From a bacterium (GTDB lineage Bacteria; Desulfobacterota; Deferrisomatia; Deferrisomatales; BM512), in contig SRXB01000002.1 of the NCBI GenBank assembly GCA_009724975.1, forward strand, positions 1 through 32,144: a stretch of 32,144 nucleotides of DNA. Reading direction: 5' to 3'. The position numbers and the translations under genes are program-made. Shown here one piece after another: positions 31-22,934 of the stretch. Positions within the stretch are counted from its first letter, which is position 1; the number at the start of each line of letters is the position of its first letter. The notes under the pieces were generated by a model. The model had not been told where the DNA came from. It saw nothing but the letters and a program-made list of their open reading frames with translations, and did not search any database.

Positions 31-2238
31 TTATGTGCAGTGGTTGCATTCCGGGCAGATGTACGTCCAATTCCCTAATGAGTCTTTGCAGGGTGTGGCG
101 AATACGTCCTGGCCAAAACTCCGATCGACCCAGTCGAACGGGGACAAATTCGCTACCTCATCGGACGCTTTCAAAACAATGACCGGGTAGCTTTTGTGAC
201 AGTGCCCGCAGATCCTGTTCCCCCACTTCGACAGGCAACTGGGACATTCACATTCAAAGTGCCCCGTTTTCAAATTGACAGGGGTTTGGGGAGCGTTGAT
301 GCCCGTACTGCAAACCGGACATTTCAGAAGTGCTTCGAAAACGCGTACGCTTTCATCGATTTTTGTGGCAAAGCTTTCTAGTGCGTCCTTGGCCATCTGA
401 GCTTCTGAAATCTGCTTCGTTAAATCTGCCTTTTGCCTGTTCAGATGTTCAGTCTTACTTCGTGCTGTCACCGCTTCACGAAGCTTACCGGTGACATCAT
501 CCCGTTCACCTTCCAGCCTCTGCAATAAGTTATCTGCTGTCTCGACAGACTTGCTAAGGTTGAACCGCCCCATTTCTTGCTCCGTTGGGGGTCGAAGCAG
601 CGTGACGAATCCGTGCCCATTCCCGGCAAGCCACTTTGTTTCAGAAAAATGGGCAAATTCTTTCTGTGGCTCCTTAATCTGTAGCGGGAAAGAGGCGTAC
701 AGAGGCCTGAACAAGGACCACCGTATCGCCCTGGCCACGCGCTCAACGCTGCCGAGATCCCATGGCGATACTGGAAGATAACCGAGCGGCGCGATTTGGC
801 TACTTTTCAAGTCATGCTTAAGAGAGTGGATCCGCTCACTGACCGCGGTTGTCATTTTGTTGGAAGAAAAGGCTTCCGGCGATGACGGGTAGAGAAGCAG
901 CGTGCTGTCAAGGCCAGCTGATGGGCTCTCAAGTTCACCAAACAGATCGCCCAACACCTTCTCTTCCATTTGGACGAGCGAAGATCCAAGGGGCACGATG
1001 CGAAGCACTTGTTTACACCCTTGCTGCACGAGGAAGTTATCCTCCTCGTCCCACGACAGGAAACAAGAACCGCTAGGACCGGTCAATTCCAGAGAACAGC
1101 CCCGCCTGATTGCAATATCACAAGCTTTAGGCTCAAACCCCAACTGGCTGAACGCTCTTGCGGTCAGCAAAAAACAAAATTTCACTATATTCCGGAACAG
1201 TTCCTGGTACTGTCGATAAATTTCCGAAGGCGTTTGCTGCCTGTTAACCCCCAGCTTGACATACGCCTGCCAAAGCGACGCCACATGCCTGTAGTGCTCA
1301 TCGTTCGACAGGATATTCGTCATTTTGATTGACGTGCCAACGCTCGAACGACGCGGGATGGCCCGATAGAGTTCCGTGTCTTTCAGCCCAGCAACCCGTC
1401 TCTTATATGTCTCAAGTTTCTTGATCGTGTTCCTAACCTGCACAAGCCCTTCGTTGGCGTTGACCGATTTCCCCCATAGAGAATAGATCCTTCTTGCACG
1501 CCCCCAAGTGGACCCCTTGGAGACAGAAAAGGTACTATCACTAGCTTCAACGAACATTTTTTCAAGCCGGCGAAGCTCATTGATGCGGGACAGAAGATAC
1601 TCCAGGATCAGGTCAGCAAGCCTAACGCATACCCGGTTCTCGTAGATGTCCAATTGGTCATATCGAACTTGCGAAAGGATCCGCTTGGGGACGACCGACC
1701 GCAGGGTCGGCCTTTCCCAGTCCTCAGTGTGCTCCGCGAGGTAAGCCGCTGCATTGTTGGGGATTCGGCGGCTCTGTGACACGTTCACGCGCTCGATTTC
1801 GACGCGCAGGTGTGCCCTCGGTCGGCGACAGACCTCCTCGAGATGGCAGAGCTCCCTGCCGATCTCGATATCCAGAGGTCGCATCGCGACTCGCTCCGCA
1901 AGCCCTGGTACCAGTGGCGAGATTTCAAGCCAGTCGAACCAGCCGGCGCCTTGATCGACAAGTTCGGACAGTTTACATCCGATGGCATTGATACTTCCCG
2001 CCTCGATCTGTTCCGGGTACTGGCCTGTCGCATACGTTCCGGCCCCTGCCAAGCCGTCCAGCCCGGTGAGCCGCCAATCCCTGGAGAGATCGGAGACGAG
2101 AAGATCCCCATCGGCAACCCGCACGGAATTCAGAAAGACCGGTCTGTCTCCCGGGCGCAGTTGCCAACGGCCGTAGAGAACAGTGCCCTTGGGAGCCTGG
2201 TGATCGGTCCTGGTTATGCGGTCTCGGAAAAGTGACAT
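31..2238 (-). CDS. McrC-position protein: McrC/DUF2357-like N-terminal half, coiled-coil segments, C-terminal double zinc ribbon; no recognisable PD-(D/E)xK motif
   Basis: 735-aa ORF. Its ATG at 2238 lies 3 nt after the stop (2242-2244) of the upstream McrB-like gene. LDIYENRVCVRLADLI resembles the D-x-x-(E/A)-N-R segment I remember from McrC/DUF2357 N-terminal domains. There are E/K/R/L-rich helical stretches. The last 96 aa (nt 34-321) carry CPVC, CPSC, CGHC and CPEC. I found no DAKY-like (D/E)xK block by eye. Confidence 0.55.
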   Translation of the reverse strand: MSLFRDRITRTDHQAPKGTVLYGRWQLRPGDRPVFLNSVRVADGDLLVSDLSRDWRLTGLDGLAGAGTYATGQYPEQIEAGSINAIGCKLSELVDQGAGWFDWLEISPLVPGLAERVAMRPLDIEIGRELCHLEEVCRRPRAHLRVEIERVNVSQSRRIPNNAAAYLAEHTEDWERPTLRSVVPKRILSQVRYDQLDIYENRVCVRLADLILEYLLSRINELRRLEKMFVEASDSTFSVSKGSTWGRARRIYSLWGKSVNANEGLVQVRNTIKKLETYKRRVAGLKDTELYRAIPRRSSVGTSIKMTNILSNDEHYRHVASLWQAYVKLGVNRQQTPSEIYRQYQELFRNIVKFCFLLTARAFSQLGFEPKACDIAIRRGCSLELTGPSGSCFLSWDEEDNFLVQQGCKQVLRIVPLGSSLVQMEEKVLGDLFGELESPSAGLDSTLLLYPSSPEAFSSNKMTTAVSERIHSLKHDLKSSQIAPLGYLPVSPWDLGSVERVARAIRWSLFRPLYASFPLQIKEPQKEFAHFSETKWLAGNGHGFVTLLRPPTEQEMGRFNLSKSVETADNLLQRLEGERDDVTGKLREAVTARSKTEHLNRQKADLTKQISEAQMAKDALESFATKIDESVRVFEALLKCPVCSTGINAPQTPVNLKTGHFECECPSCLSKWGNRICGHCHKSYPVIVLKASDEVANLSPFDWVDRSFGQDVFATPCKDSLGNWTYICPECNHCT

Positions 2239-2241: not shown

Positions 2242-4677
2242 TTACTCATCGTCACCGGAACCGAGGCGCCTAAGCTCGTCCGCGATGATGGCCAGGGAGT
2301 GGGTCGGCTTGCCCTTTTTATCCAGTTCTTTCCACGATTCCTGCACCAATGTCTGCAATTCGACAAGGTGCTCCATCCGGGTGTCATGCCGGTTGCGTAT
2401 CTTCCGCAGGAGCTTCGTAGCGAGGATGTGGTCTGTTGCCTCGCCCACGCTCCCTCCTGCTGCCACCACGACGGGGACGAAATCCATCATCTGTCGCTCG
2501 AGACGATTGCCCCAGCCAACCCTAAACTTCCTGCCGAGAAACTCGGCAAACTTTTCATCGAGGAACTTGTACGCGTGCGTCCCGTGCTTTCCGTTTTTCT
2601 CACGGGCCTGATCGAAGGCCCCCTTCAACGATTCGAAAGCGACCGGATTCCGGTGGTGTGGTCGTTGCGGAGCAAACTCCTCCCGGTTCCTTGGCAGTTC
2701 CATCACGTGGCCGCGGTCATATGTCTTGTCAGCAAAGTCCTTAGTCGTCTCGTCGTGATTGGCAGTGCCGACAAACCACACATTCCTCGGGATCAGCAGT
2801 GTTCTGCCATTTGTCATCAGTTTCGGTGCCGGCTCGACTGGTGCGGTCATCAGGTCAAGTTTCTGCAAATGAGGCTCCTGCTCGAGTGCCGAAAGGAGAT
2901 CAGCGAAGTATTGCTCGGGGTGTGACAGGTTCATTTCATCCAGGACGACAATGTACGGACGGCCATCATAACAGGGAGACTGTGCTTCGTAGAGACCTTG
3001 CAAAAACTCGCTTTCGTAAAACCGGCGCTCGAAGGCGTTGAAGTGACCTACCAGGTCCTGCCGATCGCGCCAACCGGCCTGAACCTCAATCAGCTTGAAA
3101 CCGGCCCCTACTGCCCGAGAGAACGCAATGGGCAGGCTGGTCTTGCCCGTCCCGCTGATCCCTTGGAGCAGGTGCAGCCGGCTCATGGCCAAGCCACCGA
3201 GAAAACAGCGAAGGTCACGAAGGGAATAGTATAGGGGATTCGAAGCATCGGGATCGCTGGCAATTCGATGCTGAAGATCCGTCGTGAATTCTGACAAATC
3301 GATCGCATCCTCTTGCAGATTGACGGAAGAGCGCAGCGCCTTGTCCTCGTCCATTTGCATCAAGGCCGGGAACGGGCTGACTCCATCCGAGCGGCGGATG
3401 CGATCTTCGACATCGGCTCTCAACTCCTCCAATGCGGCTTGGAGTAAATTGCGACTGGTTTCAAGCGCTTTTTTCTGGTCGCGCAGCGTTTCCACCTCGG
3501 TGACTGCAATCTCGCACAGTCCCAATTTCCTCTCGAGCTCCAGCTTCTCCTGAGTCAACCGATACTGCTCCCCTTCCCAGGCCTCCCTTTCTCGCTCAAG
3601 CAACGCAAGGCGCTCAACGGCAGCTAGATTCGGTCGTGCCGCCAATTGTTTTTCCAGTTTTTGGCAGCACTTTACACTCTCGTTCAATTCGGCCAGCACC
3701 TGCTCCGGAGACTTGTTCCCGAAGCGGCGGTCCGACTCCTCCCGCTCGCGAAGGATCGCGTCAAGACGGTCCCGGTCGGCCGAGGCGCTCGATAGCCGAG
3801 CGTTGAGCGCCTTGATTTCAAAGTTCAGTGCTTCTTCCCTGGCCGCCGCTCTCTGTTCCGTGCGCTGCTCCAGATTCTTCCGTTGTTCTTCGATATCTTG
3901 GCGCTCAAATTCGAGCTTCCTTTTTGCTCTCTCGATGTCAACTAGCTGAAGGTGAAGTTTTTGCTCGTTTTTCTTCAATTCTTCATATTCACTCTCGAAA
4001 CGGCTTTTCATCTCGGCCTCATTCCGGCGCAAAAGCTCCTCATGCTCTTCCATCCGGTGGGCCAAATCTCGTTCCAAGGCCAAGCGTTCTTCCGCGACAA
4101 CCTTTCGGCAGTCGCCTATTTCCTGGCGCACAAGGCGCGCCTCTTCCTCCAACAGACGAAGGGATTCGCGGCGCTCCGTTATAAAACCAGCCTCGGCATT
4201 GAGCTCGCGTTTTTTCAATGCCTCTTCCTGGTCAAGAATCTCCCTTTGCTGCGCATCCAGCGCCGTTCGTTCCTCTTTCAACTCTTTTTCCTGCCTGTCG
4301 AGCTCTCGCGACCTCTCGCGCTGCGACTTTTCCTGATCGGAAAGTTTTACGCGCTCTTTATCCAGTTCCTCCTTGAATTCATTCGCACGCTTCTCTCTTT
4401 TTCTGCACAATTCCAAGGCCTCCTGCGCCTTTCTTAGAAGCGCAGGCAAATTGGTCATCTCAGGGGTGATCGTCATAGTGGAAACGGCATCGATATCCAC
4501 ATCCGCAGCCTCGGCGATGGCTGACTCGGAGACTTCATTGACGGCTAACAACTCCTGCGATGACGGTGTCTTTGATTCAACCTTTGGAGCCGAAGGTGTG
4601 GCGCCGGAGGAGTTCCCGTTAGTGCCCACCTGCCCAACTCTGTCCCTGTTCTTGTTTTTGTTCTTGTTCTTTGACAT
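2242..4677 (-). CDS. McrB-family AAA+ GTPase with a long N-terminal coiled coil (CoCoNuT CnuB-like)
   Basis: The ORF track starts at a GTG (4698). The ATG at 4677 is preceded by GGGAGGAAG and is preferred. Motifs: Walker A GISGTGKT, Walker B region IVVLDEMNLSHPEQYFADLLSALE, and WFVGTANHDETT (the McrB NTAD-type equivalent). About 350 aa of heptad-like E/K/R/L/Q sequence (aa ~85-430) precede the ATPase. The extreme N-terminus is KNKNKNKN low complexity. Confidence 0.8.
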   Translation of the reverse strand: MSKNKNKNKNRDRVGQVGTNGNSSGATPSAPKVESKTPSSQELLAVNEVSESAIAEAADVDIDAVSTMTITPEMTNLPALLRKAQEALELCRKREKRANEFKEELDKERVKLSDQEKSQRERSRELDRQEKELKEERTALDAQQREILDQEEALKKRELNAEAGFITERRESLRLLEEEARLVRQEIGDCRKVVAEERLALERDLAHRMEEHEELLRRNEAEMKSRFESEYEELKKNEQKLHLQLVDIERAKRKLEFERQDIEEQRKNLEQRTEQRAAAREEALNFEIKALNARLSSASADRDRLDAILREREESDRRFGNKSPEQVLAELNESVKCCQKLEKQLAARPNLAAVERLALLEREREAWEGEQYRLTQEKLELERKLGLCEIAVTEVETLRDQKKALETSRNLLQAALEELRADVEDRIRRSDGVSPFPALMQMDEDKALRSSVNLQEDAIDLSEFTTDLQHRIASDPDASNPLYYSLRDLRCFLGGLAMSRLHLLQGISGTGKTSLPIAFSRAVGAGFKLIEVQAGWRDRQDLVGHFNAFERRFYESEFLQGLYEAQSPCYDGRPYIVVLDEMNLSHPEQYFADLLSALEQEPHLQKLDLMTAPVEPAPKLMTNGRTLLIPRNVWFVGTANHDETTKDFADKTYDRGHVMELPRNREEFAPQRPHHRNPVAFESLKGAFDQAREKNGKHGTHAYKFLDEKFAEFLGRKFRVGWGNRLERQMMDFVPVVVAAGGSVGEATDHILATKLLRKIRNRHDTRMEHLVELQTLVQESWKELDKKGKPTHSLAIIADELRRLGSGDDE
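4648..4672 (-). repeat. Imperfect AAGAAC hexamer tandem repeat encoding KNKNKNKN at the 5' end of the McrB-like gene
   Basis: The minus strand reads AAAGAACAAGAACAAAAACAAGAAC. Confidence 0.7.
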
Positions 4678-4699
4678 AACTTCTTCCTCCCGCTCCACG

Positions 4700-6268
4700 T
4701 CATTGAGTCAGTGGCAACTCGTAGATGTCCCTGATGATTTGATAAACGCTATCGACACCAACCTGAATCTTGGCCCGGCTTGTCGTCAGTTGACCGCTTT
4801 GCCCGAAGTGCGCTGCATCGTTGACAACATCAGTGATAGAGGCTAATCGCTCCAGCAAGTCTGGGCACCGTTTAGCTGCAGACCTTAAGGGATGGCTATC
4901 AACCCTTGCCGCCGAAAGCATGCTGACGACTATGGCTGCACGTAGCTTCCAAACCTTTCCCGATGAGGAGACAGCCTTGATGTCACTGGGTTTTGCTACG
5001 GCCAGTGAGGCCGGTAGCGGAGTGACGAACCCCATGCTCGACGCTGAAGAGTTGTAGACCTTTTTGACATACTCGGCATGCTGCCAGTTCTTCTCGTCCT
5101 TATAAAGTGCACGCCAGACCTGCTCGTCCGGGAACATCGCCAACATGTGGCCAAAAACCCCCTCCAAGACGCGGCGTGCGGCATTGAGCGTGTCTCTGAA
5201 TTTGTGTTTAGGACAGCTCTCGTCAAGTAATTCCACTTCCTGGCGGCAGCACTCCATCTCAACTACCACCTCAAAGAAAGGGAGCTGTTCTAAGGTTGCG
5301 CCGAGCCTTGAAATGGCTTTGGCGCGGGCATCAACTTCAATTTCCCGGTGCCACTTGCGTTGATCTTCCAACCTATCGCGATTTTTCTCGCCGACGAGCC
5401 TGTCCAGCGTCGTCCTTAACCCTGGGTAGTCAGGGAGTTGCTCTTCTATTCTTTTTTTCAGCCGGGCACTTACCCCCAAGCCGAAGGGGTCACAGGCATA
5501 CCAGTCCCACACATCCATTTCGGCCTGGGGCAGATAGATGTACGTATTGAGAAAGCAGGGGGTGGGCTTGTCTTCCACCATCGAAACACGGTCAAGGCAA
5601 CTGCTGCTGATAGGTGTGGAATCTTCTTCACCATCGTTCTCGCCGCGCATGTTTTCATCGGCATCCGAATAGCGCGCGGCCCGATTGTGCCGCCGGGTTA
5701 CCGTCACGATTTCAGCGGCCTCCGGCGTCTGCGGCGGGCCGAGTGCCTTCGGTAAATGCATGTAGGTCGGCTGCAAATAGGGTTTCCCCTTTGTACCAAG
5801 CACCAGAATCGGGAAGCCCTTTTCTCCGTACTGTAAATTGACACTGTCGAGCTTACTCTGCTCGACAAAGCGCGGCCAGAGTTGCCCGCTCCAGGGGTCC
5901 TGAAAGACATAGCCGACAACGGTTTTGTGATCTTCGATGGTCTCATGAGCGAGTAGATCGAGCCCCTTTTGGGTCGGTATGCCGTGGCTGTCGACAAGAG
6001 CCTTCATCTGCAGCTCGAGCATTATCTTTGCTACCAAATCCGGGTGCAGGTGGAGCCGACCGCCGACCTTTTCCCGATTCACAATACCGATGCGGCACAT
6101 CCCCAGCACCGCCTTTTGAAAGACGTTCAGCACTTTATCCCGAGGTTCAGGTGCTACGACCTGATAGCGCCAGGCGGGCCAGAGAAGGTGCTGGCGCTTA
6201 TCGAATGGAACGTGCGCTCGCGGTCGGAAGTTGTGAACGGGAGAATTACGCTGAAAGTCGAATGCCAT
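4700..6268 (-). CDS. Hypothetical protein with a possible N-terminal winged helix and a C-terminal HEPN-like helical domain with a degenerate motif
   Basis: The ATG at 6268 is preceded by GGGGGGGAGC (the G7 tract at 6272-6278) and lies 19 nt after the helicase stop. VLNVFQKAVLGMCRIGIVNREKVGGRLHLHPDLVAKIMLELQ looks winged-helix-like. The C-terminal helical region ends in LLERLASITDVVNDAAHFG, which resembles a HEPN Rx4-6H helix but has Val where Arg is expected. Confidence 0.45.
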   Translation of the reverse strand: MAFDFQRNSPVHNFRPRAHVPFDKRQHLLWPAWRYQVVAPEPRDKVLNVFQKAVLGMCRIGIVNREKVGGRLHLHPDLVAKIMLELQMKALVDSHGIPTQKGLDLLAHETIEDHKTVVGYVFQDPWSGQLWPRFVEQSKLDSVNLQYGEKGFPILVLGTKGKPYLQPTYMHLPKALGPPQTPEAAEIVTVTRRHNRAARYSDADENMRGENDGEEDSTPISSSCLDRVSMVEDKPTPCFLNTYIYLPQAEMDVWDWYACDPFGLGVSARLKKRIEEQLPDYPGLRTTLDRLVGEKNRDRLEDQRKWHREIEVDARAKAISRLGATLEQLPFFEVVVEMECCRQEVELLDESCPKHKFRDTLNAARRVLEGVFGHMLAMFPDEQVWRALYKDEKNWQHAEYVKKVYNSSASSMGFVTPLPASLAVAKPSDIKAVSSSGKVWKLRAAIVVSMLSAARVDSHPLRSAAKRCPDLLERLASITDVVNDAAHFGQSGQLTTSRAKIQVGVDSVYQIIRDIYELPLTQ

Positions 6269-9200
6269 GCTCCCCCCCGCACAAATCATGGAAAGCGATC
6301 AATCCCGGAATGGCCTCAGACGCATCATTCACCGTGAGCATCCCTTCGTCACCGACAACAATCAGTAGCCTCTGTTGTCTACTCATCGCAACGCACAAAC
6401 GATTTTCGAGCATGAGATGTCCGAATTTCCTGCGAAGGGTTTTGCCCCCCCCCGAAGGAAACTCATTGCTTCTTGTCATCGAAAGGATAACAACGTCGAA
6501 TTCCTTGCCCTGGAACGCATCCACCGTTCCCACCCGCAATCTGTCCTTCAATTTCCCGTTGCTGTCCAGGAGTTCGCGCCATGCCGGAGCGACCGCAAAC
6601 GAACCGTTGTCAAGTTGTTCAGTCAACCCGTTCATGGAGAGAGCTTTGTTGATTTCATCGACCTGCGCTGAGTAAAAGCTGATGATCCCGACGGAAAGAT
6701 CCGATCGCAGCTCCAGCATGCGCTTGGTTTCCTTGGCGATCCACCTGGCCTCGACTGGACGGAACTTGCTCTGCTTCCCCTTTTCGGAGCCGGCGCTGTA
6801 AGGGATGTTCACCCAAGCCGCAACGGCATCACGGTAACGCTCCAACCCATGCACAAAGTCAGAGGCAGGGCGTCCGGAGCGGAACGACTCCCCGTGTGGC
6901 TTGTAGAACGTGTCGCTGACAAAGTCGCCAAGGATTGGGTGCATGCGGTACTGGACGTCAAGCGTGACAGTCCTCTTGATCCCATCGACTCTTTCCCTCT
7001 CGCGCATATCTTCAAAAAGGCGCCAGAACATACTCTTGCGCAGAGAGTCACGCGTCGCTTCCAGTACCGACTCCTCAAGCTGGAGTTCGACATCCGGTTC
7101 AAGAATGTGTGGGAGTTGCCTGTGGTCACCGACAAGAATGATCCTTCGCTCTGCACACGACAACGGGATCAGGAGATCGAGGGGGTTGGCTCGGGCCGCC
7201 TCGTCGACAACCACGTTTTCAAAAACGATGGAATTGGGCTCGGCTTCCCAGAGAGAGGCGCTCTCCCCCCCTTTAATGATCGACATGCGATAGCCAACAG
7301 CCTGCTGGCAGGTGGCGGCGAGAACGGCCGTGTACTCTCTGATCGAGTCGCGCATAGACTCGCTGTCGTTTTCCAAATCGTCGAGGTATTCGGAGAGGAC
7401 GACCTCTTCCCCACCGGCGGTCTGCCGCGCTCGCTGGTACAACGCCTCAACGGCTTCCACGAGAAGTGCTTGGACATCGTCATTGACTAAGCGGACCCCG
7501 AGGGGGCGTTGGTCCCCCTGCAATCGATCGAGAAGCACGCCCTTGAGTTGTTCCAGTTCCTGCAGAAATGGGGGAGGGGCATCGGGATCGGGCCATTCCG
7601 CAGCCCTCTCCAGCAGCGCGCGCTCCTGCTCATCGAGCTGGCCGTTGCTATCGATTCGGCTGAGAACCCGATAGGCACTTTGAGGACCGTCATCCCCAAA
7701 CGTTGTTGGCTCGACCCGCAGGCCGCGTACGGCCTTCATTGCGAAGTCGGTGTCTTCGGCTGCAAGCCCCCCTTTTAATAGATGCCCTTTCTGAAGCTGC
7801 AGTTGAAGGGTAAGAAAACGGTCCTTCAGCTCCGCCTGGAAATGATCACCTCCCTCACTCCTGACGGAAGCCAGGGCTTGGATCGCATCCTCCATCCCGG
7901 TCGGCGATCCAACGTATGCAGCCGCAATGTCCCTCACCCGTTTGAGGGCCTCTGTCACCGGCCGTGTCGGGAATTGCGCCAAATCAGCGCGAACCGCGTC
8001 CACACGTTCTTTTCGCCAACGTTCGAAACCATCGTCCTCTGTATCTTGCCCGCGTCTCCGGCCAACCTTGATTGCCGGCAATCCGTAGACCACGGTTCTC
8101 TCTGCGGCATTTTCAACGGCATCATGCTGGTAGCTCGTCAATAGTGTCTGCCCGGAAATCCCCCTTGATTCTTCGGCTATCTCGGCAAGCCGAGACTGCA
8201 GGGCAGCAATGACCATGGTCTTGCCAGTACCTGGGGGGCCTTGAATCAAGGCTATATCAGGTGTGTTGATAGCTACTTTCAGCGCTTCTATCTGGCGTGC
8301 CGTCGGTTCGGCACCAAAGGCTGCCTTGACGGCTCCGGATAGCGGTTGCCAAGTTTTCCCTCGGCGTTCATGAATAGGTGCGCGTTCGATGATAAGGCCG
8401 AGTTCTGGCATCCTGCACTCTGCCGTAACGATGCTTCTCAGCGCGAGTTCCCGTCTCTTCAGACGCTTTCTGTCCCCACTGAGGCTCATGAAAATGGCAC
8501 CGTCCCGGGGGGGGATGGTGTCATCGTCACCCCTAGAGGAGGACAGATCGATGGTCTTGGCATTCAGGTTGTAAGCGACAGGTTTCCCAACGAAAGCGAC
8601 TCGGCTTTTCTTCACCTCTTCGCCGGCACCATCCCTACCCCCGGAAGAGTGAAGCTCCGAGGGAGGGGCTTCGGCGACCTCAAGACTGACATCCTCATTG
8701 TCGAAAATTGCACTCAACACAGTATCAACATTGGGGGCGTCTTTGAGGCTAAAACGCCAAATGCCTTCCCGCAACAGCTCCGGCTTCCCCTTGTAGGATA
8801 GCCAGCCAAGGGCGCGAGCACGCTTTAAAATGCTCTCCCTTTCGATATGGTTGTAATCACCCCACAGTTTGAGATAGCTGCCGGCGCCTGCAACCATTTG
8901 GTCCAGCATGCTCCTGGCGGTACCACGAAACTGTCCGGCCATGGTGAGGTCGCAAAAACGGATATTCCCTTGAACGAGGATCACCGGTCTGCGTTCTTCC
9001 AACCGGTCGGAGCGTTTGCTCTGGACGATGCGCGTGACGAGAAGCCGATTCTCCTTGGTGCGGCTAACATCGATGGAGATACCGACGCCGTGAAGACGAA
9101 ATGCGGTTTTTTTCTCCCCCTGAAGGTCTGGGCTCCCGGTGAGCAAGGCCCTGATCAGCCCTCCGGGCTCGAACGGCACGAGCAAGACCCGCTCCGTGAG

Positions 9201-9617
9201 CCAATCGACAACGCCGGCGACATTGATAATCTTATCTTCCCGCCTGCGCACGTCTTCTACGACTTTATCGTCGATTCCCAAGTCGACGGTTTCTGGCCAC
9301 TCGTATCGCGCGGGGAACTCATGGATTTGTAGCGTTATCCGTCGTGTTTCCACCTTGGTGGGCAGCGCTGCAGCTACCCAGCAGATTCGCGGCAATCCTT
9401 TTGATCTCAACCGTCCGAGGGTCTCGTTGTCTCCCGGATTTTCCCCCGTTATGGAAATCGCATGATCACCGACTTTCATAAGCAGCTCATCAGTTGTTTC
9501 GTTGAAGAACAGGAAGACTTCCGTCTTGGGGCGAACCTCTAGCCCAAACGCGTCCCCTCGGGCTGGCCGCACGCCAACCGCAGTCATCCCTCCATGTGGG
9601 ACCTGATGAACGTTCAT
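6246..9617 (-). CDS. Superfamily-1 UPF1/DNA2-like (COG1112-type) helicase with ~450-aa N-terminal non-helicase extension
   Basis: Motifs seen: Walker A LIQGPPGTGKT, motif II VVVDEAARANP, ILVGDHRQLP, LDVQYRMHPILGDFVSDTFY, VGTVDAFQGKEFDVVILS and LCVAMSRQQRLLIVVGD. The ATG at 9617 overlaps the kinase stop as ATGA. The longer ORF reaching 9776 would overlap the kinase gene and is rejected. Confidence 0.85.
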   Translation of the reverse strand: MNVHQVPHGGMTAVGVRPARGDAFGLEVRPKTEVFLFFNETTDELLMKVGDHAISITGENPGDNETLGRLRSKGLPRICWVAAALPTKVETRRITLQIHEFPARYEWPETVDLGIDDKVVEDVRRREDKIINVAGVVDWLTERVLLVPFEPGGLIRALLTGSPDLQGEKKTAFRLHGVGISIDVSRTKENRLLVTRIVQSKRSDRLEERRPVILVQGNIRFCDLTMAGQFRGTARSMLDQMVAGAGSYLKLWGDYNHIERESILKRARALGWLSYKGKPELLREGIWRFSLKDAPNVDTVLSAIFDNEDVSLEVAEAPPSELHSSGGRDGAGEEVKKSRVAFVGKPVAYNLNAKTIDLSSSRGDDDTIPPRDGAIFMSLSGDRKRLKRRELALRSIVTAECRMPELGLIIERAPIHERRGKTWQPLSGAVKAAFGAEPTARQIEALKVAINTPDIALIQGPPGTGKTMVIAALQSRLAEIAEESRGISGQTLLTSYQHDAVENAAERTVVYGLPAIKVGRRRGQDTEDDGFERWRKERVDAVRADLAQFPTRPVTEALKRVRDIAAAYVGSPTGMEDAIQALASVRSEGGDHFQAELKDRFLTLQLQLQKGHLLKGGLAAEDTDFAMKAVRGLRVEPTTFGDDGPQSAYRVLSRIDSNGQLDEQERALLERAAEWPDPDAPPPFLQELEQLKGVLLDRLQGDQRPLGVRLVNDDVQALLVEAVEALYQRARQTAGGEEVVLSEYLDDLENDSESMRDSIREYTAVLAATCQQAVGYRMSIIKGGESASLWEAEPNSIVFENVVVDEAARANPLDLLIPLSCAERRIILVGDHRQLPHILEPDVELQLEESVLEATRDSLRKSMFWRLFEDMRERERVDGIKRTVTLDVQYRMHPILGDFVSDTFYKPHGESFRSGRPASDFVHGLERYRDAVAAWVNIPYSAGSEKGKQSKFRPVEARWIAKETKRMLELRSDLSVGIISFYSAQVDEINKALSMNGLTEQLDNGSFAVAPAWRELLDSNGKLKDRLRVGTVDAFQGKEFDVVILSMTRSNEFPSGGGKTLRRKFGHLMLENRLCVAMSRQQRLLIVVGDEGMLTVNDASEAIPGLIAFHDLCGGEHGIRLSA
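6445..6453 (-). repeat. G9 homopolymer (coding strand) inside the helicase CDS
   Basis: The plus strand has nine consecutive C. It encodes the SGGG of NEFPSGGGKTL, upstream of helicase motif VI. Confidence 0.9.
8517..8524 (-). repeat. C8 homopolymer (coding strand) inside the helicase CDS
   Basis: The plus strand has eight consecutive G. It falls in the codons for TIPPRD in the N-terminal extension. Confidence 0.9.
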
Positions 9618-11023
9618 GACGGACCCCCAGGATGAAACTCGAACCGTACGACCCGATGCACTTCTGCCTTGTCGCCAAGATGTAAATAAAGTGAAGATTT
9701 CCTCGGTTCGAGCTTCGTCGTGACGGGTCGTAAGCCTAGATCCATCTGTTTGGTCCTGGATGCCGATATGAGGCAATAGCTCGCGCCATCTAGAGATTTT
9801 AGGGACAGAACGTCCCCTGACAGACTCAATTCGACCAGCTCCCTACAATGAGACCCAGGAGTTGACCCGAAGGCCAAACGGCTATCGATGCGAAGGGGTA
9901 CCTGCTCATCCATGATCGCGATCTCGGCGATAACAGGTTTCTTATCCGGACGCTCCAATACTTCCTTGCCCTCACCAAGAGAAGGGTCCCAGAGGTAAAA
10001 GATAATGCGGACAAATGTTGGCCGTTGGTGGTCGCACCATGGGCAGTGCGCTTCGTTGTAGTAGTAGCTACCGCCGCAGCTTGGGCAATTCAAGGTGCGG
10101 TCGGCGGATGCGTGCAGTCGCTCAGCCCATTCGGCAATGCCCGGCCGCTTGGTTGGCTCGTTCAACCCCTCTTCGAAAGATCTGCGACACAGTTTTCTGA
10201 GTTCCGGCGACAACACCATTTCTCGCGGGATTCCGCTGTGGCAGCGGTTCAAGTTGTCACCCTCGTGCTCGATCCACGGGAGCTCCCCCAACAGGGCTTT
10301 TTCCTCCAGACAAGGCTCACCTTCCGTCACGTAATCTCCAATCAGTGGGTGAGCCAAGGTGAGTGTTTGAAACGCCAAGACTGAAAATGCGTGTGCATCT
10401 GTCAGTGAGTTGACGCCCGAGAGCCCCTTCAGAAGTTCGGGGGCCCCATAACTCGGGGTGTAAATCGTCTGCGCGACCGGAGAAGAGGAGTAAGTAAGGT
10501 TGTCGGCATCGATAAAGGCGACTTCCTGTGCATCGACAGACTCTGACACGAAGATGTTCGCCGGGGACGGATCACCGTAGACCAAGCCCTTGCTGTGGAG
10601 CTTGGCAAGTATGTCGGCCGATTTTGCCAGAAGTCGAAGACGCCTTTTGAGTCCACCCCCGGAAAAATACCATCTCACGAGGGACGGCGTACCCTTCGGG
10701 ACAGCGGCCAGCGTCTTCAATGGCACCATCCCCGACATCAACTCCATGACGTAGCCTAAATACGGGCTACGCAGAACTGCCAAAGGTTTGGCAATGGCAA
10801 CATCCTGAAGGGGGAGGCGTTTGACAAACGTAATCTGATTTTTCAATCGCTCCCGCTGTGCCGAGGTCCTGTTTATGAGAATTTTGACGGCAAGTTTGCC
10901 CCCCTCGACTTCAAAAACAGTCCCCTGACCGCCACTCTTTGGGGATGCGGTAGCGCTAAGGGGATAGCGGTGGCCATGTAAATCCACAACCTCTTTGGGC
11001 GCATTACTCATGGCTCGCTGCAC
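9614..11023 (-). CDS. Ser/Thr protein kinase (TerY-P triad kinase) with internal zinc ribbon and beta-rich C-terminal domain
   Basis: Motifs seen: Gly-rich loop SGGQGTVFEV, LAVKIL lysine, catalytic loop HSKGLVYGDPSPANIFV, FIDADN (DFG position), SYGAPE, and CPSCGG...CPWCD. The start is either the GTG at 11023 or the ATG at 11011. Both overlap the PP2C stop (11004-11006). Confidence 0.8.
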   Translation of the reverse strand: MQRAMSNAPKEVVDLHGHRYPLSATASPKSGGQGTVFEVEGGKLAVKILINRTSAQRERLKNQITFVKRLPLQDVAIAKPLAVLRSPYLGYVMELMSGMVPLKTLAAVPKGTPSLVRWYFSGGGLKRRLRLLAKSADILAKLHSKGLVYGDPSPANIFVSESVDAQEVAFIDADNLTYSSSPVAQTIYTPSYGAPELLKGLSGVNSLTDAHAFSVLAFQTLTLAHPLIGDYVTEGEPCLEEKALLGELPWIEHEGDNLNRCHSGIPREMVLSPELRKLCRRSFEEGLNEPTKRPGIAEWAERLHASADRTLNCPSCGGSYYYNEAHCPWCDHQRPTFVRIIFYLWDPSLGEGKEVLERPDKKPVIAEIAIMDEQVPLRIDSRLAFGSTPGSHCRELVELSLSGDVLSLKSLDGASYCLISASRTKQMDLGLRPVTTKLEPRKSSLYLHLGDKAEVHRVVRFEFHPGGPS

Positions 11024-11753
11024 TCTCTTTCATCCACAGAATGACCAAGGTTTTGTCGTCAATATGGTGAGGAGTTGGCCACTCCCTCAGTTCTCTCCTG
11101 AGCGAATGCCAGCGCTTTAAAGGAGGCATCGCGCCGAACTCCTCGAGCAGCCAAATTACAAAGTCATCGACCCTATCTGGTATCAAGTCATCAGAGATAC
11201 CGTCTGTTGCCAAAAGAACGATTGCTTCTCCCGTGACGCGAAAGTCCTGCAGGGTCCAATTGCTGACCTGGAGATTTTGCCCCAAAGCTCTTGTATTATT
11301 TGAAAAGTTGTCCCCGCGCTGGCCGTGAATCCATTCCGTGTCCTCGCCACCCCGCTTTATGACCGCCATTCCATCTCCCAACCCGCCAATCAGCAAATTG
11401 CCATCGGGGCGTTTCAGAGCGAACAAACAGGTAGCTTTGCTGGCGCCAGGCGGAAATGGCAATACAAGTCTCTGCCAGGTCGGCTCAATCTGCGTGATCA
11501 GTTCAGTTGGCGTGCCGCCCGAAAGTTTGCTCCACTTTTTGACGGATTGAACAACAGCCTCGCACGCACACTTCGCACCGTGTCTTGCGTGAGGGCATGA
11601 ACCTACTCCGTCACTGACGACGATCAGGTCGCCGAAAGCCCCCTTGGCTCTCATCCAGGCGTCTGCATTGGGCATGTGCCTGGCCCTGTGATAAGGCCCC
11701 GCCTCGGAGGCCCCGAATGCAAGGGTTTCCCCTCTGCTAGAAAACGTCTTCAT
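11004..11753 (-). CDS. PP2C-family Ser/Thr phosphatase (TerY-P triad)
   Basis: 249-aa ORF with LIVVSDGVGSCPH and VLLATDGISDDL metal-binding Asp motifs typical of PP2C. The start overlaps the vWA gene end by 17 nt. Confidence 0.8.
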   Translation of the reverse strand: MKTFSSRGETLAFGASEAGPYHRARHMPNADAWMRAKGAFGDLIVVSDGVGSCPHARHGAKCACEAVVQSVKKWSKLSGGTPTELITQIEPTWQRLVLPFPPGASKATCLFALKRPDGNLLIGGLGDGMAVIKRGGEDTEWIHGQRGDNFSNNTRALGQNLQVSNWTLQDFRVTGEAIVLLATDGISDDLIPDRVDDFVIWLLEEFGAMPPLKRWHSLRRELREWPTPHHIDDKTLVILWMKESAASHE

Positions 11754-12399
11754 CGAAATCGATCGGGTCGCTCGGAATGAAGCTGTCGGGGTTTACGCTG
11801 CGTGAGCGCTCCGTCACGCTCATCGTGACCCACTTGAAAAACTTTTTGATCTGTCGAACATCTTGTGCAGAGAAGACCTTGCCGTTTGGATCCGCCAAAA
11901 AAGCTGAAAGCATTGTCATGTCGGCATCATCGCCGATTCCCAAAGCAAAGCGGCTGGCCTTGGAACCACGCGGAGAGGACAAAAGGTCTTGCAACGGCTG
12001 TTGCCAGTCATCGGTAGGTTGACCGTCAGATACCAGGATCAAAGTCGGCGAGTAGGACCGGCTGGGTATCTGTTGCCGATCCTCGATCAACTGAAGAGCG
12101 GTATTAAGGGCCGCACCTAGAGGTGTAGCCCCGGCTGCAGTCATTCTTTGCCATGAGGTCTGTCCTGCAGGTGTCAGGGCTTGATGGAGTTGCCCCCCAT
12201 TTTTGCCGAAAGTGATGGTGGCCACATGGATTTCTGCCCTGTGGTCATCCTCACTGGCAAATGTCCGCAGCATTTCCTCGATGGAGTCATTGAGCACGTC
12301 AATTTTGCCATTTGTGCTCATACTGCCACTGACGTCAGCAAGAAGGATCACAGGGAGTGGGCGAGCGGTGCCGACGACGAATTCCTTTAGTTTGCTCAT
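11737..12399 (-). CDS. TerY-like von Willebrand factor A (vWA) domain protein (TerY-P triad)
   Basis: MIDAS motif LLADVSGSMS, followed by ATPLGAAL and LILVSDGQPTDD. ATG codons occur at 12405 and 12399; GAGGAA spacing favours 12399. The gene starts 5-11 nt after the RtcR-like stop (12410-12412). Confidence 0.8.
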   Translation of the reverse strand: MSKLKEFVVGTARPLPVILLADVSGSMSTNGKIDVLNDSIEEMLRTFASEDDHRAEIHVATITFGKNGGQLHQALTPAGQTSWQRMTAAGATPLGAALNTALQLIEDRQQIPSRSYSPTLILVSDGQPTDDWQQPLQDLLSSPRGSKASRFALGIGDDADMTMLSAFLADPNGKVFSAQDVRQIKKFFKWVTMSVTERSRSVNPDSFIPSDPIDFDEDVF

Positions 12400-12409
12400 G
12401 TTCATTTCC

Positions 12410-14062
12410 TCAGTTGAGTTGTCTGTCGAGCCAGTTTCTGATTGTTCGCTCAGTCACATCGCAGAGACTTTCTACTGGGACTCCGCGCGACTTCGCGATC
12501 CTCCGGATTTCTCCCGCCAGATATCGCCTGAACTCACCTTCAATCTGGGCGCAATCGATGGCCCCCGCAGACTGCAGCACAAGGTCAAGCGGCTGCCGAT
12601 CCGCAAAACAGCGCGCGACCCGCGGGGCGATCGCTTCCGTTTGTCTCTGTGTCGACGAGGAAAAATCGAGAGCTGATAACGCCTCGTCGATCGCCTGGTC
12701 GGGAGATAATCGGGTTTCCTCATCGCTGCGGGCAGCCAGGAAATGGTAAGCGACTTGATAAAGGGTTCGGAGATTGCCAGGGAGAGGATGCTGCTGCAAA
12801 AATCGCACAATCTTGTTGCTCTGCGCTTTACCGATCGATCTCGATCTGTGCGGGACACCGGAACGCTGGGCCGCGTTCTCGTAGACCTGCTCCCAGAGCC
12901 AAGGGATATCCTCTGGTATGTCCCGGAGAGCTGGGAAGTGGAGAACGAACGTGCTGATCCGATCAAGGAAGTCGCGATCAAGACGGCTTTCCAAAATGTC
13001 CCAAGGGAGATTGGTGGCTGTCAATAAGCGAAAGTTGCTTTCCACAGGCTGGTTGTCACCAAGGGGGTAGTACCGTTTTTCCTCCAACGCCTTTATCAGG
13101 AGTCTCTGGACCTCCTTTGACACGTCACCGACTTCGTCCAGAAAGAGCGTATCGTTGTTGGCTTTAGAGAGAAGGCCTTCCTTTTTGAATTTAGCGTCCG
13201 TGAAGGAGCCCTTCGCATGGCCGAAGAGTTCTGACCGCATGGTTTCGGGCGTATACTGGCCACAGGCCACGGCGGGCCACTCGGCCCCCTTGCCATTCTT
13301 GAACTGACTATGAAGTCTGATCCAGCTTCCCAAGGTGGTTTTCCCGGTGCCGCGTTCGCCCAGGATAAGGATCGGTACGTTCAATTTGGCATAACGGGCA
13401 GCTTTTTCATAAAGTGCGATGAGAGCCGCAGACCGAAAGAGCCGACGGTCCCATAGTATCTGTTGTTCTGAGGTTTCGACCTGTAATGGTCTGGTGGAAA
13501 CGAATTTTTTGTAAAACGTATCGATACCGATTTCTACGTTCCCAATTACCTGCCCATCTGGTCGCTCGCCTTTTCGATAGGATTTTACAAGTCGGAGCGG
13601 CGGAGCGATGAAACCCGTTTCCGCCATCAGTACCCAAATAGTGTGCATCGACGGGGTTCCGGGGCTCACATGGATAATGAGCTCGCGGTTTAGATACTGC
13701 TGGCGAAGCCGCGGAAGCTGATCTTCTAGAAACTCAAAGATGCTTTTGTGGTCGGTCGGATCGTCGGAATGCCAGCAGAGGGTTCGGGCCTTGATCCCAC
13801 TGTCGCGTTTGCGAATTTCACCTATTGTTTCTTCAGCCGTCTGCTTCTCCTCAGTACGTCCTGAAGAATCCTGACGGTAGAGTAAAATCACGTCCTTGAC
13901 GGTACCGCGCAGAGGCGACCCCTCGGAGAAAAGCAGGTTCAATGTGGGCCCCGGTATGGGGACTCCGTCAACGAGACGATAGCTCCTGGATTCGCGTTGC
14001 CTCTCAAACGGGTCATTGTTGAAGGCGGCCCATGATATGAGGACGGCGTCTTTATTTGTCAC
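12410..14062 (-). CDS. RtcR-like sigma54-dependent transcriptional activator (N-terminal CARF-type domain, AAA+ core, C-terminal HTH)
   Basis: GTG start at 14062 with GGAGG 10 nt upstream. Motifs seen: Walker A ILGERGTGKTTL, sigma54-contact loop ELFGHAKGSFTDA (GAFTGA-like), Walker B LFLDEVGD, and RLLTATN. The N-terminal ~190 aa include LIIHVSPGTPSMHTIWVLMAETGF, which resembles the RtcR N-terminal domain from memory. The C-terminal ESLCDVTERTIRNWL is HTH-like. Confidence 0.75.
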   Translation of the reverse strand: MTNKDAVLISWAAFNNDPFERQRESRSYRLVDGVPIPGPTLNLLFSEGSPLRGTVKDVILLYRQDSSGRTEEKQTAEETIGEIRKRDSGIKARTLCWHSDDPTDHKSIFEFLEDQLPRLRQQYLNRELIIHVSPGTPSMHTIWVLMAETGFIAPPLRLVKSYRKGERPDGQVIGNVEIGIDTFYKKFVSTRPLQVETSEQQILWDRRLFRSAALIALYEKAARYAKLNVPILILGERGTGKTTLGSWIRLHSQFKNGKGAEWPAVACGQYTPETMRSELFGHAKGSFTDAKFKKEGLLSKANNDTLFLDEVGDVSKEVQRLLIKALEEKRYYPLGDNQPVESNFRLLTATNLPWDILESRLDRDFLDRISTFVLHFPALRDIPEDIPWLWEQVYENAAQRSGVPHRSRSIGKAQSNKIVRFLQQHPLPGNLRTLYQVAYHFLAARSDEETRLSPDQAIDEALSALDFSSSTQRQTEAIAPRVARCFADRQPLDLVLQSAGAIDCAQIEGEFRRYLAGEIRRIAKSRGVPVESLCDVTERTIRNWLDRQLN

Positions 14063-14124: not shown

Positions 14125-14490
14125 CTATGCTGCCGCATGACCATGAAAATAATCGTCGCTTTTATTGCTTTTCCGCCAGACTTTCCCATACCGGGGTTTC
14201 AGCCCACGGAAATTGTGATTACGATAGGCAGTGAGGACGGTGCCGGACTGGGAGCAAACCACGTGAATGCCCTCGCACCTTTCAAGATTAATCCCCAGGT
14301 CCCTTTGAAATTTAATTTCCTTGATCCCAACTACGTAAATAATTGCCCCCCGAATTTGGATCGCCCGCCCATAAGTAAGAACGTTGTCAATATCGCTACT
14401 GCGAATGTGTCTGTCACTCATCCTCTCCAAAGCATGCTTAGTCAAAATCGCTTCGACGTCGCCCGACCACTCCGCATTGTGTCCTTGCAT
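14125..14490 (-). CDS. DUF4258-like small protein; first gene behind the candidate sigma54 promoter
   Basis: 121-aa ORF with ATG at 14490 preceded by GGAGGTGAACC. TKHALERMSDRHIRSSDIDNVLTYG resembles the DUF4258 H-A-x-E-R-M signature. GC content is visibly lower than in neighbouring genes. Confidence 0.45.
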   Translation of the reverse strand: MQGHNAEWSGDVEAILTKHALERMSDRHIRSSDIDNVLTYGRAIQIRGAIIYVVGIKEIKFQRDLGINLERCEGIHVVCSQSGTVLTAYRNHNFRGLKPRYGKVWRKSNKSDDYFHGHAAA

Positions 14491-14526: not shown

Positions 14527-14542
14527 TGCCAACAGCATGCCA
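14527..14542 (-). promoter_or_regulatory. Candidate sigma54 (-24/-12) promoter
   Basis: The minus strand reads TGGCATGCTGTTGGCA. GG and GC are spaced exactly as in the consensus TGGCACG-N4-TTGCW. The element ends ~37 nt upstream of the DUF4258-like ATG and lies in the same operon as a sigma54 activator. Confidence 0.5.
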
Positions 14543-19812: not shown

Positions 19813-19855
19813 GTATGCTCCCCCGATGGGCCGAAGCCCAGCCATCATTCAGCGC

Positions 19856-20668: not shown

Positions 20669-20682
20669 ATACCCCTCGATAG

Positions 20683-22116: not shown

Positions 22117-22337
22117 GCGTGCGCCCCCTCAGGCAATGCTTAAGATGCAGGGCCCACCATAATGCGGCAGCCATGCGCCCCCAGCTTATCTTACCCGGCG
22201 GAATGTCAGGATAAGTCACAACGGCTTGCCGTCCATGATACCCACCCAGGAAAACATCCGGCCACACCATTTCGATAATGGGTGGCCGGGGCGTGCCTGA
22301 AGCGCACAGTTCGCTTTGGGGAATTTACGGGAACGGG

Positions 22338-22853
22338 CTATCTGGCCGGTTCAAAATCTCTGCGCAACTGTCGGTCAAATCCTTCAATGGCCTGCACGAT
22401 GAAATCAAACCAGCCATCGACATCAGGGTCCTGATCATAGCTGCCGCGCCGGGAAGAATAGGTGAGTTTGAGGGTGGCCCTTTCCTCAAAACCACTCGGG
22501 CGGAGCCTTTTCGTCACCTCGAATTCCACATCGTTGTCCCCTTCAAGGAACACATTCCTAGCGACACCGGGAAAGCCCTGCTGATCGGTTGGTAGTCGCT
22601 TGAACTCCTCCATGTACTCGACGTTGATCCGGAGGTAAACATGTGGTCTGTTCAGCGAAAGACGCCCCATGCCGGAAGAGACACCATCACATATGTTTAT
22701 CAAGGTCAGGCTGCGCAATCGGTTCAGCTTTTCGAGCCAGCTATCTTTCAGATTCTTGTCCACGCACCGCCCGTTCCAGAGTCGTTCATGAGGCCTGCAC
22801 TCCCTGCGGTTTGGCGCCATCTGCGGCGGAATGAGATTTACTCCCTGTGCCAT
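22338..22853 (-). CDS. Hypothetical 171-aa protein
   Basis: ATG at 22853 with GAGAGG upstream. No recognisable motifs. Confidence 0.45.
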   Translation of the reverse strand: MAQGVNLIPPQMAPNRRECRPHERLWNGRCVDKNLKDSWLEKLNRLRSLTLINICDGVSSGMGRLSLNRPHVYLRINVEYMEEFKRLPTDQQGFPGVARNVFLEGDNDVEFEVTKRLRPSGFEERATLKLTYSSRRGSYDQDPDVDGWFDFIVQAIEGFDRQLRRDFEPAR

Positions 22854-22934
22854 AAAACCTCTCAGATGTGATGATGGTCTTCACCTGCAATCAAAATGTG
22901 GATATTGCTGCAAGGTCGACGGGGGTTGTGCCTG

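Follow-up and report, generated by a model that had tools for sequence, protein, structure and literature searches.

A McrB-like ATPase bearing a long coiled coil is the probable CnuB of a Type II CoCoNuT operon

The window analysed here is the whole stretch of 32,144 nucleotides at positions 1 to 32,144 of contig SRXB01000002.1, from a Deferrisomatales bacterium (assembly GCA_009724975.1). Within it a minus-strand gene at 2242-4677 encodes an 811-residue protein that is very probably CnuB, the McrB-like ATPase of a Type II CoCoNuT system. CoCoNuTs (coiled-coil nuclease tandem) were defined computationally by Bell, Sahakyan, Makarova, Wolf and Koonin (eLife 2024, PMC11090510) as a derived branch of the McrBC Type IV restriction systems that is predicted to target RNA and to act against phages. 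Taken as a whole, the data are in all likelihood best explained by a McrB-like motor with an NxD signature, a helical N-terminus devoid of a reader domain, and a surrounding Type II CoCoNuT operon. The locus is a clear further example of the system named in 2024 and the finding leaves existing knowledge unchanged; no experimental study of CoCoNuTs was found in the literature searched.

The published description (PMC11090510) provides the features against which the locus can be read. CoCoNuT CnuB proteins are McrB-like GTPases, fused to a long coiled coil, in which an NxD motif is usually followed by Glu or Asp. Type II CnuC proteins combine a DUF2357 domain with an inactivated PD-(D/E)xK fold and bind zinc through two or three CPxC motifs. 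Type II systems also encode an upstream CnuH, with an SmpB-like OB fold plus a RelE-like domain at its N-terminus, and a CnuE in which an elongated winged helix-turn-helix (wHTH) is fused to one HEPN domain having an RxxxxH motif that is conserved in most cases. The HEPN family cleaves RNA (PMC11090510). Frequently associated, although outside the core, are the TerY-P triad, RtcR-like regulators and BrnT-like toxins. In Type III-A systems the CnuC zinc ribbon has been lost, and an Hsp70-like nucleotide-binding and substrate-binding domain pair (NBD/SBD) plus HEAT-like repeats have been gained, whereas CnuH, CnuE, the TerY-P triad and the RtcR associations are found in both types (PMC11090510).

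Results

The motor domain is McrB-like and has an NxD signature

The initial annotation had placed the gene at 2242-4677, coordinates that proved right, and translation of the open reading frame (ORF) puts it on the minus strand, with an ATG at 4677 and a stop codon at 2242-2244. The same strand carries every large reading frame in the first 14.5 kb of the window. The ATG at 4677 was taken as the start codon because GGAGG lies 8 nt upstream and homologues share the same M-x-K-K-N-K opening, support that the upstream GTG at 4698 lacks. From the N-terminus the protein consists of MSKNKNKNKNRDR, a Ser/Pro/Gly/Ala-rich part, a long Glu/Lys/Arg/Leu/Gln-rich part and then the motifs GISGTGKT, DEMN and GTANHDETT.

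Judged by its sequence, CnuB is a McrB-family AAA+ protein with an NxD signature. The GISGTGKT Walker A motif noted in the initial annotation is present at residues 506-513 and conforms to GxxGxGK[ST], as does the Walker B motif (VVLDEMN, residues 576-583) to hhhhDExN. The signature reads N640-H641-D642-E643, its Asp residue being one position earlier than in the NTAD of E. coli McrB, and thus the canonical NxxD form is absent. The GISGTGKT, DEMN and NHD-E motifs, including N640, D642 and E643, are invariant in alignments of 30 and of 27 CnuB homologues. Note that no NxD-type McrB has been characterised (PMC11090510) and that the GTP specificity of CnuB is assumed.

The only Pfam match of CnuB is AAA_5 (E 3.4e-5), a family common to McrB and MoxR. 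Structural comparison gave no finer placement. VIA-align matched the CnuB model to E. coli McrB (6ut6_D) with Z 13.1 and a root-mean-square deviation (rmsd) of 3.1 A over 180 residues, a score tied with those of the MoxR-like 2r44 (Z 14.4; rmsd 4.7 A over 285 residues), RavA (Z 13.2), MCM and dynein. Foldseek with the whole model returned only generic AAA+ matches, NorQ-NorD entries among them, and the ATPase domain alone, searched against solved structures, gave just chance-level RAG1 rows (E ~0.5). As a fold search cannot separate the AAA+ families, a profile built from 27 ATPase sequences was compared by hhalign with E. coli K-12 proteins. The profile matched E. coli McrB with 96.7% probability (E 4.3e-10, 148 columns) in an alignment that spans Walker A, DEMN/DEIN and GTANHDE/GLMNTAD, whereas RavA was matched at 48% (E 1.9e-4) and the alignment reached only Walker B.

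These comparisons bear on the alternative that CnuB is no relative of McrB but a MoxR-type AAA+ chaperone that remodels the VWA protein of its operon, as in the RavA-ViaA, NorQ-NorD and CbbQ-CbbO pairs. Such a chaperone would give the AAA_5 match, the 2r44 structural match at the top of the VIA-align list in which RavA also appears, the NorQ-NorD entries of the Foldseek list, and a VWA gene within the operon. However, the profile favours McrB through the signature, the N-x-D-E signature is invariant, and the immediate neighbour of CnuB is a DUF2357/McrC-like protein in 76 of 80 related loci; the VWA gene lies four genes away and is absent from 22 of the 80. We therefore give the MoxR reading very little credence.

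The N-terminal region is a segmented helical stalk in the position of the DNA reader

Two AlphaFold2 models were built, one of full-length CnuB (30-sequence alignment, mean predicted local distance difference test score (pLDDT) of 75.8) and one of residues 70-444 (36 sequences, mean pLDDT 83.9). In the full-length model a disordered segment (residues 1-40) and two short low-confidence helices are followed by helices at 77-297, 325-346 and 352-430, with a loop at 298-324 and an alpha/beta AAA+ domain at about 486-805. Folded alone, residues 70-444 form helices at 78-319, 324-345 and 351-431. The pLDDT values fall below 50 at residues 1-40 and 63-76 of the full-length model, and the linker of residues 14-76, most of which is predicted to be disordered, has low conservation and many indels in the homologue alignment.

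The initial annotation had described this region as a KN repeat, a Ser/Pro-rich linker and a continuous charged heptad-like stretch devoid of a recognisable nucleic-acid reader. The repeat is MSKNKNKNKNRDR at residues 1-13 and the linker is indeed rich in Ser, Pro and Gly and of low pLDDT. The charged stretch stands as about 350 residues of helix (residues 77-430) having significant hydrophobic periodicity, but it is not strictly continuous, with breaks at 298-324 and 348-349. The coiled-coil character was judged from the AlphaFold2 helices, hydrophobic periodicity and structural matches rather than by a dedicated coiled-coil predictor. The family-averaged hydrophobic profile of residues 77-157 has a 3.5-residue period of power 12.2, versus 4.6 for the 99th percentile of the null, and the same period is significant in residues 325-346 and 352-430. 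In residues 166-297 the peak is at 3.6 residues (power 14.2), and the AAA+ domain showed no hydrophobic periodicity by the same test. By a cruder measure, the single-sequence heptad score of 0.357 exceeded those of all 200 shuffles (maximum 0.354).

No reader was detected ahead of Walker A. Residues 1-480 gave no Pfam match even at E<=10, no beta strand precedes residue 455 in the full-length model, and Foldseek with the N-terminal model returned nothing at E<=10. Exhaustive VIA-align of the same model found solely long single helices from filament and coiled-coil proteins, among them the myosin rod 2fxm (rmsd 3.2 A over 126 residues), lamin, tropomyosin, rootletin, the kinesin stalk and microtubule inner proteins. 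In the ESM Atlas, too, the neighbours of this part are coiled-coil segments, those of MAD1, the kinesin stalk and PcsB. A folded DNA- or RNA-binding domain within residues 1-480, which the initial annotation had named as the finding that would speak against it, does not appear in the AlphaFold2 model, where everything before residue 455 is helix or disorder. Its description of a McrB-family protein with a coiled coil in the position of the DNA reader thus agrees both with the hhalign match to E. coli McrB and with the helical N-terminus.

The helical stretch is segmented. A soft break at about 298-324 appears as a loop in the full-length model and as helix through residue 319 in the N-terminal model, and a conserved Arg-Pro follows at 348-349. 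Conserved residues are found at heptad spacing around the soft break (L295, R302 and L309; G320, V327, S334 and L341), and the proximal helices, with the Arg-Pro break and the IAVTELETLRDQK block, are the best-conserved part of the N-terminal region. A homodimer prediction with two copies of residues 70-444 gave scores of 0.21 and 0.20 versus a mark of 0.42; this run, made with no controls, is silent on self-association.

A cationic tail, an invariant motif and a fixed-length module mark the stalk

The cationic tail at the start of CnuB is a family trait. Among 113 full-length homologues, 97% have a net charge of +3 or more over residues 2-16, versus 3.9% of random windows, and an M-x-K-(K/R/N)-N-K opening is found also in distant CnuB proteins of Pseudomonas, Colwellia, Lutibacter and Actinomadura. 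In the window an imperfect (AAGAAC)x4 repeat encodes the tail; the repeat is in frame, and hence slippage would alter the number of Lys-Asn units rather than the reading frame. Lying at the far end of the coiled coil, the tail is a possible nucleic-acid contact within CnuB. One metagenomic CnuB homologue has a SEC-C zinc motif (residues 10-28, E 6.9e-8) in place of the cationic tail.

Within the otherwise variable long helix the motif ELNAEAGF stands out: E158, A161, G164 and F165 are invariant in 30 homologues, and the motif coincides with a local dip in pLDDT to 59. The spacing of landmarks divides the stalk further. GN(320) and IAVTELE(390) lie exactly 72 aa apart in every correctly anchored homologue (60 rows were scored, five of which were uninformative owing to a regular expression that mis-placed the IAVTELE anchor), and IAVTELE lies 112-121 residues from Walker A in correctly anchored homologues. 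In contrast, the segment between ELNAEAGF and GN is anywhere between 128 and 237 aa long, and the steps in its length are not multiples of seven. The constant 72 aa versus the variable 128-237 aa argue for a stalk whose proximal module is rigid and whose distal arm is adjustable in length. The length differences of the variable segment occupy all classes modulo 7, and neither a strict parallel coiled coil nor a hairpin topology can be inferred. CnuB length is uncorrelated with the lengths of CnuC (r 0.05) and CnuE (r 0.12), and thus shows no sign of matched coiled-coil lengths. The cationic tail, ELNAEAGF and the fixed 72-aa module were not found described in Bell et al. 2024 (PMC11090510).

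The operon has the composition of a Type II CoCoNuT

The operon reads (RtcR-like CARF activator)-VWA-PP2C-kinase-CnuH-CnuE-CnuB-CnuC. The reading frames upstream of cnuB overlap or abut, cnuC begins 3 nt downstream of cnuB, and all of the operon frames are intact. CnuB itself has the NxD-then-Glu signature and the long coiled coil of CoCoNuTs. Of the Type II features, the upstream UPF1-like helicase and the TerY-P triad plus RtcR-like activator are present, as are, at the sequence level, those of CnuC; the Type II assignment was made against the feature description in PMC11090510 rather than against the Type II representatives listed there.

DUF2357 is the N-terminal domain of McrC. It was detected in 19 of 26 CnuC homologues (best E 1.4e-6), and the ESM Atlas neighbours of CnuC contain DUF2357 and, further out, the PDDEXK_7 nuclease domain. 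A DUF2357 partner beside a McrB-like ATPase points to a McrB-McrC pair, although not a canonical one, given the N-H-D-E signature, the missing D...ExK motif and the zinc ribbons. Five CxxC motifs (CPVC, CPSC, CGHC, CPEC and CNHC) lie between residues 640 and 734 of CnuC, and no D...ExK or PD-(D/E)xK motif is conserved across the 26 aligned homologues. This composition also speaks to the possibility that the system is a conventional DNA-cutting Type IV restriction enzyme in which the coiled coil is a ruler between the DNA contact and the McrC cleavage site. The McrBC ancestry, the 128-237 aa range of the coiled-coil mid-segment (as might be seen in a ruler) and zinc ribbons that could bind DNA are all compatible with that picture. 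However, CnuC lacks the conserved PD-(D/E)xK residues, CnuB lacks a modified-base reader, the helicase of the operon is of UPF1 type and the candidate nuclease is HEPN-like, from a family that cleaves RNA (PMC11090510), and we regard a DNA ruler as highly unlikely.

Upstream of CnuB, CnuE (529 aa) has a weak wHTH match (E 0.069) and one HEPN-like motif position, near the C-terminus. This motif (4808-4825, minus strand) reads VNDAAH, whereas 42 of 64 homologues have R-N/D-x-x-x-H. Another 21 of the 64 carry A, G, T, V or C in place of the Arg. These replacements fall on several separate branches of the CnuB tree, and the His and a second, upstream His-Pro motif are retained. CnuH gave AAA_11 and AAA_12 matches and was matched as an IGHMBP2-family helicase (E 3.7e-37); its N-terminal extension is conserved among homologues. 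The helicase also matches PADLOC MkoA (E 3e-85, positions 530-1081 of model PDLC03920) and the kinase, encoded by its own gene, matches positions 8-273 of that model, so that the pair resembles a split kinase-helicase fusion.

It is extremely unlikely that the locus belongs to Type III-A instead. CnuH, CnuE, the TerY-P triad and the RtcR association would be expected of either type and to that extent are compatible with Type III-A. However, CnuC has its five CxxC motifs and gave no Hsp70 match in Pfam even at E<=10, CnuE shows one HEPN-like motif position and not two, and in the model CnuB ends six residues past the AAA+ lid with no C-terminal helix-turn-helix.

Several results weigh against the assignment. 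The structural match of the motor to McrB is tied with those to other AAA+ families as given above, and neither phmmer nor a full-length-alignment profile gave a direct match to any solved McrB. The CnuC of the window matches DUF2357 only at E 0.044, and a CnuC profile compared with E. coli McrC gave no match (probability 0.15%). The N-terminus of CnuH compared with an SmpB profile gave 0.1% probability; the published SmpB-like claim was made from predicted structure. Finally, CnuE lacks the catalytic HEPN Arg, and thus the predicted RNase effector of this locus may not act as published.

The last of these points can be extended to a functionally altered CoCoNuT, in which CnuE does not cut RNA and the CnuB-CnuC motor is coupled to another effector chemistry or merely sequesters its target. 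This would account for VNDAAH at a position where 42 of 64 homologues have the Arg motif and 21 of 64 have replaced it, in an operon with every reading frame intact. Moreover, the recurrence of the Arg loss on several branches, with the His and the second His-Pro kept, argues for selection on a changed function rather than for decay. In contrast, HEPN motifs are variable and another residue may replace the Arg, and the recurrence was read from a quick tree (MAFFT and FastTree, midpoint rooting, no support values) at the level of sequence. We consider an altered system unlikely, though less so than the other alternatives weighed here, and the Arg loss, as seen in the alignment, argues for caution on the published RNA-cleavage model. 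The features of cnuB and its neighbouring genes are collected in Table 1.

Table 1. Coordinates in the window of cnuB, the features of its product and the neighbouring genes
Feature	Coordinates	Strand	Basis
cnuB, 811-aa coiled-coil McrB-like (NxD) AAA+ protein	2242..4677 (including stop codon)	minus	ORF; homologues ~50% identical over full length
Start codon and cationic Lys/Asn tail MSKNKNKNKNRDR, aa 1-13	4639..4677	minus	Imperfect AAGAAC hexamer repeat
Low-complexity Ser/Pro/Gly/Ala linker and acidic segment, aa 14-76	4450..4638	minus	Mean pLDDT 35-52 per 10-residue block
Long helix, aa 77-297, distal arm, including the length-variable segment	3787..4449	minus	DSSP on AlphaFold2 models; periodicity
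Invariant ELNAEAGF, aa 158-165, within the long helix	4183..4206	minus	Alignment of 30 homologues
Soft break, aa 298-324	3706..3786	minus	AlphaFold2 models; conservation
Proximal helices, aa 325-346 and 352-430, with Arg-Pro break and IAVTELETLRDQK block	3388..3705	minus	Models; conservation
AAA+ (McrB-like) domain with lid, aa 486-805	2263..3222	minus	Pfam AAA_5 E 3.4e-5; hhalign; VIA-align
Walker A GISGTGKT, aa 506-513	3139..3162	minus	Invariant in homologues
Walker B DEMN, aa 580-583	2929..2940	minus	Aligned to DEIN of E. coli McrB
Signature N-H-D-E, aa 640-643	2749..2760	minus	Aligned to NTAD of E. coli McrB
cnuC, 735-aa McrC-like partner: DUF2357, coiled-coil segment, C-terminal CxxC zinc ribbons	31..2238	minus	
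cnuE, wHTH-like N-terminus, HEPN-like C-terminus, VNDAAH for RNxxxH	4700..6268	minus	Weak wHTH match; alignment
cnuH, UPF1-like superfamily 1 (SF1) helicase with conserved ~440-aa N-terminal extension	6246..9617	minus	Pfam; PADLOC
Ser/Thr kinase of TerY-P triad	9614-11023	minus	Pfam; PADLOC
PP2C phosphatase of TerY-P triad	11004-11753	minus	Pfam; PADLOC
TerY-like VWA protein of TerY-P triad	11737-12405	minus	Pfam; PADLOC
RtcR-like CARF-AAA+(sigma-54)-HTH activator	12410..14062	minus	PADLOC RtcR_PspF1--CARF_AAA_HTH E 2.7e-149; Sigma54_activat E 1e-37
DUF4258 (BrnT-like) small protein directly upstream of activator	14125..14490	minus	Pfam E 7.2e-8

The operon is widespread and patchily distributed

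Homologues were counted by tblastn over the 80 best related loci. CnuC homologues were present in 76, CnuH in 72, CnuE in 68, the kinase in 61 and the VWA protein in 58 of the 80, and those genes that are present keep the same order and strand. Among the hosts are Planctomycetota, Myxococcota, Cyanobacteriota, Actinomycetota, Verrucomicrobiota and Bacteroidota, together with Pseudomonadota (Pseudomonas, Aeromonas and Marinobacter among them).

A word-index search with CnuB found 216 proteins at E<=1e-5. The best 120 of the 216 are mostly 760-940 aa long and 42-58% identical to CnuB over nearly the whole query, the nearest relatives being 50-58% identical. At E<=1e-30 an exhaustive profile search gave 1,991 CnuB clusters (50% identity), and for most of the best 150 the alignment runs from end to end. 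The CnuB relatives are encoded in the genomes of at least 584 species.

Within the lineage of the source, the gene is patchy. CnuB is a singleton at 90% identity and the source genome has one cnuB copy. Among 60 relatives one full-length CnuB homologue was found, and none was found in the same-genus genome (100% complete) or in the four same-family genomes. MetK and two other proteins on the housekeeping side are also singletons at 90% identity, indicating that the lineage is poorly sampled. The source assembly is fragmented (2.56 Mb in 650 contigs) with 100% completeness and 5% contamination.

The same seven-gene operon is carried on the 96-kb plasmid p96k of Deinococcus sp. AJ005 (22181-34899), where it adjoins a tyrosine recombinase gene. 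The public names of the genes there are generic: AAA family ATPase, hypothetical protein and, for the cnuC orthologue, DUF2357, a name given by the Prokaryotic Genome Annotation Pipeline (PGAP). The operon is thus patchily distributed and sometimes plasmid-borne, as in defence islands. Two unannotated phage records from human fecal samples gave partial matches restricted to the CnuB ATPase (22-35% of the query, 30-32% identity).

The flanking DNA contains further minus-strand genes

Upstream of the DUF4258 and RtcR-like genes, the sequence TGGCATGCTGTTGGC at 14528-14542 (minus strand) resembles a sigma-54 -24/-12 element. With two mismatches allowed, however, TGGCAC-N5-TTGC occurs 18 times in the window versus 32.5 expected, and is not enriched.

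Further upstream of the CoCoNuT operon, 14679-18748 (minus strand) encodes an 827-aa PLD-like protein followed by a 529-aa protein having no family match. The PLD-like protein matches PLDc_2 and the PADLOC models ZacB (E 9e-13), PDC-M27B and DrmC, and the pair may form another defence module within this island. The co-directional minus-strand genes at 18805-24560, which have few or no family matches, encode proteins of 347, 270, 477, 171 and 541 aa. The 270-aa protein gave C2HC zinc-finger matches below the Pfam cut-offs (zf-C2HC_2, 25.6 bits versus 27; zf-Di19, 22.8 versus 27.5) and the 541-aa protein has an ADP-ribosylglycohydrolase domain (E 5e-60). None of the 18805-24560 genes matches a PADLOC model.

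Discussion

CoCoNuTs are a large and widespread branch of the McrBC systems, and an intact annotated Type II locus should be useful for testing the idea of a restriction motor turned to RNA surveillance. The cationic tip, ELNAEAGF, the constant 72-aa module, the variable arm and the recurrent loss of the HEPN Arg provide handles for probing the role of the coiled coil.

By analogy with E. coli McrBC, CnuB would form a nucleotide-dependent hexameric ring into which the DUF2357 domain of CnuC would dock to stimulate nucleotide hydrolysis. Such a ring would have, where six small DNA readers might be expected, six long helical stalks that end in flexible cationic tips. On the simplest view the stalks would project from the ring as a scaffold or tether for the CnuH-CnuE pair and for CnuC, all three of which carry shorter coiled-coil segments. 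Target recognition would come from the partner domains, namely the N-terminal extension of CnuH, the wHTH of CnuE and the zinc ribbons of CnuC, and the cationic tip of CnuB may add to it. The initial annotation had proposed that recognition is supplied in trans or that the coiled coil acts as a scaffold or ruler; this is a reasonable proposal that agrees with the hypothesis of Bell et al. 2024 (PMC11090510). We hold the full scaffold mechanism tentatively, as a plausible arrangement that may well turn out to be wrong.

A different arrangement, which we think improbable, would make CnuB itself the sensor. RNA or the ribosome would be contacted by the tail, and the contact would be relayed to the NxD motor through the stalk; the stalk would be tens of nanometres long and built from the fixed-length proximal module, a joint at ELNAEAGF and the variable distal arm. 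In the clades lacking the HEPN Arg such a system would sequester or remodel its target rather than cut RNA.

With E. coli McrB (EcoKMcrBC) CnuB shares the AAA+ core, with its Walker A, DExN Walker B and Asn signature after strand 4, and a partner gene immediately downstream. It differs in that the signature is NHD(E), one residue shorter than NTAD, and in having the tail, linker and about 350 aa of helix where E. coli McrB has an N-terminal methylcytosine-DNA reader. CnuC differs from E. coli McrC in having no PD-(D/E)xK motif and no detectable similarity to it. The MoxR ATPases (RavA, NorQ and CHU_0153) share the AAA_5 clade and the overall fold with CnuB, whereas their profile similarity is weaker and ends at Walker B, and they have neither a coiled-coil N-terminus nor a DUF2357 partner.

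Two entries of the defence-system models touch parts of the locus. Mokosh type I resembles the neighbours of CnuB rather than CnuB, through the MkoA-like helicase and the kinase domain that some MkoA forms carry. It differs in having no McrBC-like module, and the kinase and helicase are separate genes in the window. PDC-M26A, a candidate of PADLOC-DB v2.0.0, matches residues 342-602 of CnuB (E 3.1e-32), a region that takes in the proximal coiled coil together with the first half of the ATPase. As the match covers positions 173-433 of the 724 in the model, the distal coiled coil is not shared at the sequence level. A literature search found no published description of PDC-M26.

The closest counterpart is the Type II CoCoNuT. 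This locus departs from the published description (PMC11090510) in a CnuE that lacks the RxxxxH arginine, given there as conserved in most cases. It shares the NxD followed by Glu and the long N-terminal coiled coil in place of a DNA reader in CnuB, a CnuC with DUF2357, zinc ribbons and no nuclease catalytic motif, and CnuH and CnuE encoded upstream in overlapping or abutting frames, together with the TerY-P triad, an RtcR-like activator and a BrnT-like gene.

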